Of a stretch of DNA of 64,000 nt, positions 46,148-59,859 are shown piece by piece. The first letter of the stretch is position 1. Every line of letters begins with the position of its first letter. The notes under the pieces were generated by a model. It was not told the DNA's origin, searched no databases, and worked only from the letters and a program-made list of their open reading frames with translations. This stretch comes from Octopus vulgaris (Eukaryota): the NCBI GenBank assembly GCA_951406725.2, contig OX597832.1:37014001-37078000 (forward strand). The letters are read 5' to 3'. Made by a program: the position numbers and the translations under genes.

Positions 46148-47140
46148 ATCTGTGGTCTGCTTGTGAAGACTGTGATTGCAGTGGAAACTCTGTGATTGGT
46201 AAGGAAGCTTGTGGCCATTGTGGAAGTCTTCAGCCGGTTTAAAAGCCTATGGCCGCTGTGGGAATCTGTGTCCATTGTGAAATATTATGTTTGCTATTGA
46301 AGTCTTGGGTCTGTAATCTGTAATTGCTGTGAGAGTCTGGTCGTTATGGATTCTGTAGTCATTGTGGATGGTCAGTGTGGAAGATTGCGGTCATTGTGGG
46401 AGCCTTTAGTCACAGTAGAAACCTGTAGAAAGCTGTGGCAGCCATGGAACTCTGTGGTCAATATGGAAGATAATGGTCATTGTAGAAATCTGTGATGGCT
46501 GTGGAAGCCTGTGGTAATTGCAATAGTTCACGGTCACTGTGGAAGACGGTGATTCTCGCTATGAATGTCTAGGGTCAATCTGGGTGGCTTTGGTCATTTT
46601 GGAAGGTTGTGGTCATTGTGAAAGTCCATGGTGGCTGTAGAAGTCTGTGGTCGTTGTTGACGTCTTTGATCACTGTGGAAATCTGTGATCAAAGCAGAAA
46701 TCTGTAGTTGCTGTAGAAAACTGTGGCCCATGTGGAAACCTGTCGCTGTGGAAAACAATGGTTACTGTGGAAAACAATGGTTACTGTGGAAATCTGGGAT
46801 AGCTGTGCAATGCTGTGGTCGATGTGGAAGTCCGTGGTAGCTGTAAAAGTTCGTGGTTACTTTGTAACATGGTGGTCACTGTAAAAGTCTGCGGTCACTG
46901 TGAATATCTGTTGTCGCTGTGGAAGATTCTACTCATTATGAAAGACTGTGGTTGTTGGTTATGGAAGATGTTGGTCACTATGGAAAACTGTGGAAGTCTG
47001 TGGTCAATACGAAAATCTAAGGTCGCTGTGCAATTATGTGGTCACTGTGGTTGACACCGACCACTGTAGAGTTCTAGGGCCGCTGCGGAAGTCTCTGGTC
47101 ACTAAGAAAGCCAATGGCCTCTGTGAGATTCTGCTGATTG
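46148..47140. repeat. Degenerate minisatellite, unit about 19 bp (approx. GTGGTCACTGTGGAAGTCT)
   Basis: GGTCA(C/T)TGTGGAA recurs at about 19-bp spacing for about 1 kb. Confidence 0.85.
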
Positions 47141-56984: not shown

Positions 56985-57812
56985 GTTAAAACCGAAGATA
57001 TCACCAACATCATAAGCAGTTGTCCAAAAATGCCACGTTGTAGCTAGGACACTCTATAATGAAATCCGTCGGAAGGATAACCCCGAGGACAAAGAAATAA
57101 GAACCCACGGTATGGTAGAAGCCATAGCCACTCACACTGAAAAGGAGTACTGGTAGAATGTCCCAGTGAAGACCTCAATAAAATGTAAGCATAACAGACC
57201 TGATATAATGATTTGGGATACAGAAGAGAATCTATGTACGGTTGTGGAAATTAGCTGCCCATCGGATGTTAACGTAAAGCTGAAGATCAGTGAAAAAGAG
57301 AAGACCTACGCTGAACTATTGAGAAACCTGCAGTTACTCTATCCAGATTACAAGTTCGGGTTTGTACCTGTAATTAAAGGGGCACTGGAATATATAACAC
57401 ACTGCCTAAGTGCTAATCTTGAGAAATTAGGCTTCTCAAAACCTGAAAGGAGAAAGCTAATTCGAAAGACTACAGGTCCAATCCATCGCTGGAACTGTAA
57501 AATTCTGCAAAACTTTCCGGAAGTTAATCATTCAAATATATACGTAAGCATATATATATATAAGCCTAGATATGCAAGTATATGCATGAGAATACATACA
57601 TAAAGCAAAACATACAAATCTGCACACATACATACATACATACATACATACATGCATACATACATACATATATACATACATATATACATACATATATACA
57701 TACATACATGCATACATATATACATACATATGCTGTTGTTGATGTTGAAATTCCAATGAGCCTTGGATTTAGGTTAGAAACAGGCTCTTTCTCTATTGGC
57801 AAGAAATCTTGA
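56690..57812 (+). mobile_element. RLE-type (R4-like) non-LTR retrotransposon 3' portion with (TACA)n in its 3' UTR
   Basis: EDITNIISSCPK; KHNRPDIMIWD...VVEISCPSDVN...EKEKTY...FVPVIKGAL (PD-(D/E)xK type endonuclease). Confidence 0.88.
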
Positions 57813-58034: not shown

Positions 58035-58468
58035 GGTATGTTTGTATGTATATGTAGCAGGAGTTGTTACCTTTTTCCTGCTACACACACACGCACACAA
58101 ATGTGTGAGTGTGTGTGTATGTATATGTATACACACACACACGCACACGCACACACACGCACACACACACACACATACACACATATATATATATATAGTA
58201 ATAATTATTTGAGGGAATATTAATCCAAACTTACAGGGAAAATAATTCAATTTAGAAATACTAAATCAAATTTCACACAATATAATATATATATATATAT
58301 ATATATATACAAATTAGAAAAAAAACACATTCTATCAATTCAAAATGAGCAATTAAATTACACCATCTAGAAAATTACATATAATAGAAATATTAAAATT
58401 AAATTAACAATAAAATATCAGTAATTAAGTAAATTGCAAAAAAAAAATAATAATAAATACGTATAGAA

Positions 58469-58571
58469 TAACGACACGTGTTTCGTGGCTATAATTAAGA
58501 AATGATTATAGTAAAAAGTTAATAGTAGTAGTAAAATCACTTCGATATAAATATAGCCACTCATCAGGTTA
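58469..58571 (-). ncRNA. Minimal type I hammerhead ribozyme (Penelope-associated type)
   Basis: Minus strand: UAAC-CUGAUGA-GUGGCUAUA-(58 nt)-UAUAGCCAC-GAAA-CACGUG-UC-GUUA; all core nucleotides present, 4-bp stem I, 9-bp stem II, palindromic stem III. Confidence 0.85.
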
Positions 58572-58934
58572 AAAATAAACTAGAATAATAAAATAATTAA
58601 TTAATAAATATACTTTAATATATATAAAATACTAAATATACATTAAGTGGAAATTAAAACAATACTTAAATTATTAAATACTTTAAAATTAATTAAAATA
58701 CACAATGCTAGTACAAGTCATTAAATTGTAATCAAAATAAGAAATGGTTCAAATACTGACAAACTCATTAAATAAGCTAACTATATAATTAATATACATG
58801 TGTAATATCTATAGATTTAATTTATCAATCTATAATATAGTTGACTAAATATCAATTAGTATAATACCTAATTAACTTAAAATTTAATTCTACATAATAA
58901 ATATACCACCAAATAATTATATATATATATGATA

Positions 58935-59368
58935 GGCGTAGGAGTGGCTGTGTGGTAAGTAGCTTGTTTACCAACCACATGGTTCCGGGTTCAGTCCCAC
59001 TGCGTGGCACTTTGGGCAAGTGTCTTCTGCTATAACCTTGGGCAAGTGTCTTCTGCTATAACCTTGGGCCTACCAAAGCCTTGTGAGTGGATTTGGTAGA
59101 TGGAAACCGAAAACAGCCCGTCATATATATGTATATATATATATGTATGTCTGTGTATACGTTTGTGTGTGTGTGTGTTTGTCCCCCAACATCATTTGAC
59201 AACCGATGCTGGTGTGTTTACGTCCCCGTAACTTAGCGGTTCGGCAATAGAGACCGAAAACATAAGTACTAGGCTTACAAAGAATAAGTCCTGGAGTCGA
59301 CTTGCTCGACTAAAGGCGGAACTCCAGCATGGCCACAGTCAAATGACTGAAACAAGTAAAAGAGTAAA
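58935..59368 (+). mobile_element. SINE family B with 26-bp internal tandem duplication
   Basis: Full copy inserted in (TA)n; TTGGGCAAGTGTCTTCTGCTATAACC occurs twice. Confidence 0.92.
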
Positions 59369-59859
59369 AATATATATATATATATATATATATAAGTTCT
59401 ATTAGAGGTTAAATAAGCCTTATTAAGGGATAATAATATCCAATGAACTTACTAGTTAATTATCTCTATTACTTGTTTTGAATTTTAATTTAATACTCAC
59501 AAATAATAGGTAATTAGATAAAACGAGGTTTGTATTTATTTAAGAAACATAAGAAAATAGAGTTCTGTTGTGTCTGGGGAGAGTGATTTTCTTTTTGTGC
59601 CTTATAATATAACACACTCACCAAGCGAAATAAGAAAATAGAGATTAATCAATTAAAAATTATATAGGTGATGACGTCTAGTTTTGCAATTAATAAATAT
59701 AATTATTAATTGATTAATATCTGTTTGCTTATATATATATATTTTGCTCGACATTTTAAAACGGATGTAATACTTACAGTGTTGAATAAAATGAAGTAGC
59801 ATGAAACGATTGTACCACTCTACCTCGGATATACTTGTTGCTTATTTGGATATATATAT

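Follow-up and report, generated by a model that had tools for sequence, protein, structure and literature searches.

The window analysed here, the whole 64,000-nucleotide stretch of Octopus vulgaris DNA, carries on its minus strand, at 58571-58469, a type I hammerhead ribozyme core embedded in the 3' end of a Penelope-like element (PLE). A relaxed type I descriptor had its sole match in the 64-kb window at this position, with the core boxes and the NUH triplet in type I order. The letters and coordinates given in a preliminary description of the motif were all present, and the core is intact. The features of the locus, in window coordinates, are as follows.

About 58190 to 58930, minus strand: 5'-truncated 3' end (3' UTR and pseudo-LTR, or pLTR) of a PLE bearing motifs of the Hydra clade, from matches to family loci L005 and L074.
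58191 to 58284, minus strand: pLTR tail of about 95 bp repeating the element's own 5' UTR, 95% identical to the sequence immediately before the start of the ORF in L070.
58285 to 58309, no strand assigned: internal (TA)n at the end of the unit, where many copies stop.
58469 to 58472, minus strand: hammerhead stem I, 3' strand, by the relaxed type I descriptor.
58472 to 58473, minus strand: predicted cleavage site after C17 (GUC), from the descriptor and from the 5' ends of the family, which cluster there.
58474 to 58481, minus strand: palindromic stem III, a predicted 8-bp intermolecular helix in a dimer, from duplex energies and cofolding.
58481 to 58484, minus strand: catalytic core box 2, GAAA, by the relaxed type I descriptor.
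58485 to 58560, minus strand: extended rod-like helix II, 76 nt, from the per-sequence fold (z -6.3).
58561 to 58567, minus strand: catalytic core box 1, CUGAUGA (C3 to A9), by the relaxed type I descriptor.
58568 to 58571, minus strand: hammerhead stem I, 5' strand, pairing with 58469 to 58472 (4 bp); the third pair from the core (AU or GC) covaries across subfamilies.

It is conceivable that a motif of this kind occurs by chance in AT-rich DNA, and Rfam, which had been suggested as a check, reported no hammerhead at window 54-64 kb or in four loci, only microsatellite-driven miRNA noise. However, the four loci included L111, a sister copy whose short-armed ribozyme was missed as well, and an Rfam match is a convenience for hammerhead membership rather than its definition. 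The hammerhead descriptor had no match in any of 300 windows simulated with an order-2 Markov model. A pattern built on the 3' half of the ribozyme matched the genome 943 times, compared with 3 matches for the backwards control. With the covariation across subfamilies described below, a chance match is refuted and its probability is practically nil.

The GUC triplet was located at 58475-58473, as expected from the earlier prediction of a cut between 58473 and 58472, and the self-complementary stem III was confirmed as an 8-nt palindrome at 58481-58474. The perfect 9-bp stem II of the preliminary description corresponds to nine contiguous helix II pairs that enclose 58 nt. Its view of these 58 nt as an oversized, AU-rich loop II had to be abandoned; they are mostly paired, and the census below found long arms to be the usual form. 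In the predicted fold, helix II of the window copy consists of 9 bp, a mismatch, 3 bp, an internal loop, a second run of 9 bp (58543-58535 with 58507-58499) and a 27-nt terminal loop. The 121-nt fold around the motif had a z of -3.4. A change at 58494 breaks pair 10 of helix II in the window copy; typical family copies have 13 contiguous proximal pairs, giving a helix II of 13+9 bp as compared with 9+3+9 bp here.

The element in the window is 93% identical to L005 over 756 bp and 84% identical to the 3' end of the ORF-bearing copy L074. Since its last approximately 95 bp match the sequence that precedes the ORF in L070, the window piece is a pseudo-LTR with its tail; the tail was present in 18 of 30 loci. 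A splice-donor-like GTAAGT lies in the tail's copy of the 5' UTR (58232-58237, minus strand). The sister family described below has GTAAAT at this site and another donor-like word just past the start codon, and introns in PLE 5' UTRs are known. The 5' side of the element is cut by a repeat at 58932-59394, which we take to be SINE-like, and there is no element sequence beyond it. This repeat adjoins the 5' end of the element and has 7 more partial matches in the window. Elsewhere in the window, a 148-aa frame within (CATA)n repeats (57157-57603, plus strand) presumably resembles the C-terminal restriction-like endonuclease of a LINE, and a degenerate 19-bp tandem repeat occupies 46183-47088, with 23 copies among those listed. 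Neither an ORF match for the element nor a second, partner ribozyme was found anywhere in the 64-kb window. Besides the pair-breaking change, the copy has a deletion just downstream of the motif. It is probably a decaying relic, ordinary debris, and is likely inert unless read through.

A 161-nt probe of the ribozyme region had 1,231 candidates in the 2.8-Gb genome, and the 40 that were scored besides the probe itself matched at 89-92%. The number of candidates fell to 218 for a probe 1.1-1.5 kb farther upstream, a drop-off that, on these sequence counts, is the polarity of 5' truncation. Fuller copies, traced upstream, led into an ORF of the same orientation with a reverse transcriptase (RT) plus a GIY-YIG-type endonuclease (EN) at the C terminus. 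In L074 the ORF ends about 2.85 kb before the ribozyme and the element spans about 5.9 kb. The sister copy L111 has the order ribozyme-ORF-ribozyme, with 775-bp repeats that are 99% alike. In the fuller and sister copies the hammerhead is in the pLTR, sense to the ORF. The hallmarks of EN+ Penelope-like elements were found, namely pLTRs, 5' truncation, an inverted 5' copy and an optional tail; inverted 5' pieces are common in the family (L002, L006, L018, L022, L069, L071 and L072). GIY-YIG/RT fragments beside L018, L026 and L029 were set aside because they have no link to the ribozyme family. The earlier assignment of the motif to a cephalopod Penelope-like type I hammerhead was thus supported, the motif being in the 3' end (pLTR) of an element with RT and GIY-YIG domains.

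The same description had left open a retrozyme, that is, a non-autonomous non-LTR unit, short and in tandem, making circular RNA. Retrozymes derive from PLE pLTRs according to the accessible part of bioRxiv 10.64898/2026.07.22.740005, and tandem arrays of hammerhead units do occur in the genome for other ribozyme families, at G000:C1:10836774-10838643, C1:33099609-33105375 and C1:16526555-16528759, with spacings of 594, 545 and about 534 bp. Two of these retrozyme-like arrays have 49-70-nt inserts, and the arrays are absent from the accessible parts of the literature compared. However, the family aligns continuously into the RT+EN ORF, of whose element it forms the 3' end, the window copy is single, and no short-period array of the family's ribozyme was present in the loci examined. 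A retrozyme is a very improbable explanation of the locus and is largely refuted for the window copy.

The Penelope-like ORF was compared by eye with published clades. It has R-x-K-W-K, DKT, the CxCX5C linker and CxxC/CxH around the E and N. The RWK-type motif reads R-I-K-W-K-A as compared with the published R-M-R-W-K-A, and DKT is exact (published motifs from the accessible part of PMC8557442). No CCHH motif was seen in the EN when it was read by eye. The flanks are (TA)n insertion sites, with a canonical sense hammerhead. By these motifs, compared by eye, the family appears to match the Hydra clade as defined in the accessible part of PMC8557442; the size of about 5.9 kb (L074) falls outside the Hydra size of under 3 kb, which is typical and not diagnostic. 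Membership in Naiad/Chlamys, which have an N-terminal EN and are described there as being without the canonical hammerhead, was ruled out by the C-terminal EN and the presence of a hammerhead. Pfam gave no passing family for the ORF pieces or for the intact sister ORF. Atlas neighbours of the ORF at 0.95-0.98 carry HTH_animal in 31-99% of members and GIY-YIG in 26-50%.

An endonuclease probe had 17,668 candidates genome-wide, a number from which Hydra-type elements may be a major component of the genome. Among the 150 that were scored, 26 at 75% identity or more had open frames of at most 409 aa, and 10 at 61-64% identity had frames of 828-862 aa. From these frame lengths, the subfamily looks extinct and the sister looks young. 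The sister family (L107-L116, for example L111:907-3429) has near-identical, intact, Pfam-invisible ORFs of about 840 aa, pLTRs that are 99% alike and a 16-nt helix II whose first pair is U-U or U-A; it was likely recently active. Within the 3' UTR of about 2.85 kb (L013, L017, L019 and L025), about 620 bp are duplicated at 75-80% identity, and the sister family also has internal repeats. Additionally, ribozymes of other PLE-like families lie within a few kb of the family copies L069, L070, L113, L140 and L128, which fits (TA)n targets being shared.

The insert between the cores ranged from 44 to 99 nt in 94 rows from the family loci, one of which is mis-cut. Nineteen representatives were chosen, mostly one per visible subfamily, and all 19 fold as rods of 14-37 bp with z from -1.2 to -8.3; for the distal helix alone, z was weaker than -1.5 in 6 of them. 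RNAalifold on a MAFFT alignment found no more than 8 pairs, all proximal, since the distal arm fails to align, and per-sequence folds were used instead. The covariation check proposed in the preliminary description was run on 18 of the representatives. The core was invariant save N7 and one change at C3, and 89% of paired cells were paired. Double changes were found in 7 of 17 pairs and touched all three helices. A covariation score of 0.23 was reached by none of 500 shuffles, the rows being kin, and a pair-count measure on the same related rows was equalled by 32 of 500. Pair 4 of helix II was unpaired in 10 of the 18, and stem I, which has 4 bp and fewer in some subfamilies, was 81% paired. 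Covariation across subfamilies was seen in stems I and III, the latter changing in sequence yet staying self-complementary. In 30 unselected pattern loci, stem III is a perfect palindrome in 18 and one change away in the other 12; three kinds of palindrome occur among these 30 of the 943 matches, and two more in sister families.

Private changes were found at 4 of 350 positions in the cores and 65 of 4369 in the flanks, which is of the same order, and by this measure the motif appears to decay about neutrally once inserted. Selection therefore acted in the replicating lineage and not on copies like that in the window. A host-domesticated, self-cleaving RNA under selection at the window locus could account for the intact core and palindrome of this copy and for the core being kept in 26 of 35 copies found without the ribozyme as query. 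However, intact cores are the majority state, so the intactness of the window core is expected, and the similar pace of change in cores and flanks, together with the copy's own pair-breaking change and downstream deletion, leaves domestication with very little probability. The preliminary description had called the ribozyme potentially active. As a prediction this fits the family at the RNA level; it does not suit the window copy, which has neither ORF nor partner ribozyme and belongs to a family in which private changes are about as frequent in the cores as in the flanks.

The energetics of the palindrome were evaluated with an energy model. The stem III self-duplex had a predicted energy of -10.3 kcal/mol, compared with +2.4 for the 2-bp hairpin of the monomer, and the monomer hammerhead fold was 4.4 kcal/mol above the minimum free energy. 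Two copies cofolded unprompted through the 8-bp palindrome, with a gain of 9.5 kcal/mol. Stem I pairing was predicted at only about 3%, even in the cofolded dimer. In these models the palindromic stem III fits cleavage as a dimer.

Cutting by the ribozyme would create a new 5' end, at which cDNA synthesis should run off. A junction test was employed that collects family copies keeping the sequence from +7 on but differing at -10. It gave 186 matches and 1 in the control, and the breaks were classed by eye in 100 of the 186 rows. Fourteen of the 100 listed rows keep the upstream sequence, with a point change or small indel, leaving 86 breaks: 6 at -9 to -2, 31 at -1/+1, 6 at +2, 28 at +3, 7 at +4 and 8 at +5 to +7. 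Thus, 72 of the 86 breaks among these listed rows lie at -1 to +4, which is 14 rows per position as against 0.75 upstream, or 2.2 if the 14 doubtful rows are counted as upstream breaks. A control window at -27 to -11 (17 positions), analysed with the same design, had 71 matches, comprising 37 clear breaks, 13 ambiguous cases and 21 point changes or indels. The control breaks were spread out, with 16 at -12 to -10, the base of helix II. There were about 27 breaks per position at the cut, scaled to 186, and 2-3 in the control window, a difference of about tenfold that is subject to 1-2 nt of microhomology, the differing anchors of the two tests and a range up to +7. A separate breakpoint scan of family loci, from which rows caused by the references L001 and L195 were dropped as artefacts, gave 8 breaks at -2 to +8 and one at -30, with five uninspected rows at -31 to -37. 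Many junctions join (TA)n or fold back onto the element. Judged from the genomic junctions, the pile-up of 5' ends is likely a footprint of cleavage in vivo.

The element and its fold could also be real and the ribozyme rarely or never cut in vivo, the pile-up being due to RT stalling at the stem III duplex or core, or to (TA)n microhomology. An RT moving 3' to 5' meets the palindrome at -2, 28 of the 100 listed rows have TA-type flanks and begin at +3, and the 16 control breaks at the base of helix II indicate that structure does shape junctions. The anole ribozyme, moreover, is dispensable in vitro, and the accessible part of PMC11167929 reports no cut ends in RNA-seq. However, the far more stable helix II has about 5 breaks per position at its base compared with about 27 per position, scaled to 186, at the cut, and the TA-rich stretch of the control window has about 3. 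Furthermore, 31 of the 100 listed rows begin at -1/+1 with G, where there is no TA microhomology. Stalling or microhomology is therefore an unlikely source of the pile-up. Four contig sets presumed to be RNA cover the element piecemeal, without start or end sites, and are unfit to show cleavage or expression; their higher depth 3' of the cut was left out as evidence. The listings for these four sets contain no T>C pattern that would point to editing of the ribozyme strand.

Cleavage thus remains the preferred explanation of the junctions. We consider it probable that the locus is an intact-core type I hammerhead with a long rod-like helix II, residing in the pseudo-LTR of a 5'-truncated, ORF-less Penelope copy with Hydra-type motifs, and that the once-active element likely cut its own RNA after the GUC, as a predicted dimer joined through stem III.

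The abundance of long-armed hammerheads was evaluated by counting a core pattern on both strands of the genome by insert length, with a backwards control. The counts are of matches rather than of folded ribozymes; long inserts that do not start with G fall outside the count, and slight overlap between bands is possible.

Insert of 10-30 nt, G..Y-closed: 794 sites, control 45.
Insert of 10-30 nt, not starting with G: 11,266 sites, control 495.
Insert of 31-49 nt: 1,663 sites, control 40.
Insert of 50-64 nt: 14,373 sites, control 47.
Insert of 65-92 nt: 3,634 sites, control 47.

Inserts of 50-92 nt make up 18,007 of the 31,730 counted sites (control 94). Of the forms counted in the genome, the one with a long helix II is the most common, and the window locus is no oddity in having it. 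In the first 30 loci of the 50-64-nt class, stem III was palindromic in 16, stem I had at least 4 bp in 21 and the fold had a z of -2 or lower in 18; an ORF match was present within 1.5 kb upstream in 1. The published descriptor allows a stem II of at most 7 bp and a loop II of at most 10 nt, so that long-arm motifs fall outside it. Rfam and length-capped descriptors miss over half of the hammerhead-core sites counted here, and inventories of ribozymes in cephalopods, and perhaps in other invertebrates, are consequently likely to be too low.

The history of the arm was followed on a tree of 25 endonuclease rows with a downstream ribozyme; rows without one were left out, the root was placed at the midpoint and each ribozyme was paired with an EN by proximity. 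The far group of the tree consists of three rows at 34-36% with inserts of 53-60 nt. Along the tree the insert lengths run 62, 81-93, 76, 69, 68, 44, 19, 17 and 16 nt, with the intact-ORF family nested at the short end. From this nesting, and with the root assumed, the long arm looks ancestral in the lineage and dispensable. Because the youngest, intact-ORF lineage shrank its arm to 16 nt, a long helix II is probably not required; it is likely an arm that is tolerated and constrained in its structure. A helix II series of 16-99 nt in one lineage, with intact ORFs at the short end, provides a natural panel for helix II function.

A life cycle can be proposed from these results. In tandem transcripts, two ribozymes would pair through stem III and then cleave, possibly helped by the protein of the element, as in the anole element (PMC11167929, accessible part). 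In a tandem, the first nucleotide of the cut RNA would be +1, which lies about 290 nt ahead of the start of the ORF. Reverse transcriptase would copy the 5'-OH product through to its end, and the copy would be inserted at (TA)n, often short or inverted. RNA left uncut at that site would give rise to copies such as that in the window, in which the ribozyme is retained with a further 160-280 nt beyond it. More broadly, the genome may contain 18,000 or more unrecognised hammerheads with a long helix II, spread over many PLE families and some retrozyme-like arrays; the junctions would serve as a fossil assay of cutting in the germ line, the cut RNA as the transposition template that yields short and inverted pLTR pieces, and the arm, varying from 16 to about 100 nt, as a platform for binding or positioning. 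This larger proposal could equally well prove right or wrong.

Earlier work has described hammerheads in PLE pLTRs, a dimer model and Hydra elements of octopuses. A literature search with limited reach into subscription papers found no long-armed cephalopod hammerheads and no PLE insertion ends at the cut site, and the main text of PMC13282606, in its accessible part, has no mention of a ribozyme or of Hydra. Within the accessible literature searched, the abundant form with 50-92-nt inserts and the clustering of 5' ends at the predicted cut are new. What the hammerhead does in Penelope-like elements with an endonuclease is described as unclear (PMC8557442, accessible part), and the sole reconstituted element, that of the anole, gave no cut ends in RNA-seq according to the accessible part of PMC11167929, whose Fig. 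S2 is relevant to insertion ends. Insertion ends that accumulate at the cut would provide evidence of in vivo cleavage from sequence alone, and the mapping of such ends is applicable to any PLE-rich genome. The interest lies in the family-level results, the abundant long arm and the junction footprint; the window copy itself is ordinary.

The family was compared with known systems, as described in the accessible parts of the sources cited. The Hydra-clade PLEs, including Hydra-1_Obim (Craig et al. 2021, PMC8557442), are alike in the C-terminal GIY-YIG-type EN, the DKT, RWK-type, CxCX5C and CxxC/CxH motifs, the (TA)n targets and the sense hammerhead near the 3' end. The genome contains, at C1:114927816, a ribozyme nearly identical to the published one of Hydra-1_oBim. 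In the published Hydra elements, length stays below about 3 kb, loop II has 3-10 nt and loop III mostly has 1-3 nt. In contrast, the window family is about 5.9 kb with a 3' UTR of about 2.85 kb, an ORF of about 840 aa (in the intact sister family) and 44-99 nt between the cores; its stem III is perfectly palindromic and its tail is about 95 bp where 30-40 bp is typical.

The minimal PLE hammerheads (Cervera and de la Pena 2014, PMC4209133) are also of type I, with a helix I of 4-5 bp, a longer helix II, a palindromic stem III and a dimer model, and occur mostly as solitary truncated copies or as inverted pairs 100-700 bp apart. However, their helix II is 7-8 bp, with the descriptor set at a stem II of at most 7 bp and a loop II of at most 10 nt, and the stem III of the window copy retains two pairs and four bases where theirs retains none. 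Published PLE ribozymes are slow in vitro (PMC4209133). The spike-moss elements PLE-X1_sMoe and PLE-X1_sTam (File S2, PMC8557442) resemble the octopus family in a 9-bp or 4-bp stem II with a loop II of about 30-35 nt, flagged there as deviating, and are a small precedent for long inserts. They differ in being single plant families, EN-less and rDNA-targeted, with shorter inserts, and no genome-wide dominance is reported for them in the accessible part of that paper.

The animal non-LTR retrozymes (PMC7229834; bioRxiv 10.64898/2026.07.22.740005) share a type I hammerhead, derivation from PLEs and AT-richness, but are tandem ORF-less units, whereas the octopus family has an ORF and the window copy is solitary. 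The Poseidon hammerhead PAc of the green anole (PMC11167929) is likewise a pLTR ribozyme, with AT-rich targets and an optional tail from two RT starts. It has been tested in vitro, where it is protein-assisted, in that it needs protein, and dispensable for insertion, and no read ends are reported at its cut site in the accessible part of the paper. In the octopus family, on genomic sequence, the 5' junctions cluster at the predicted cut.
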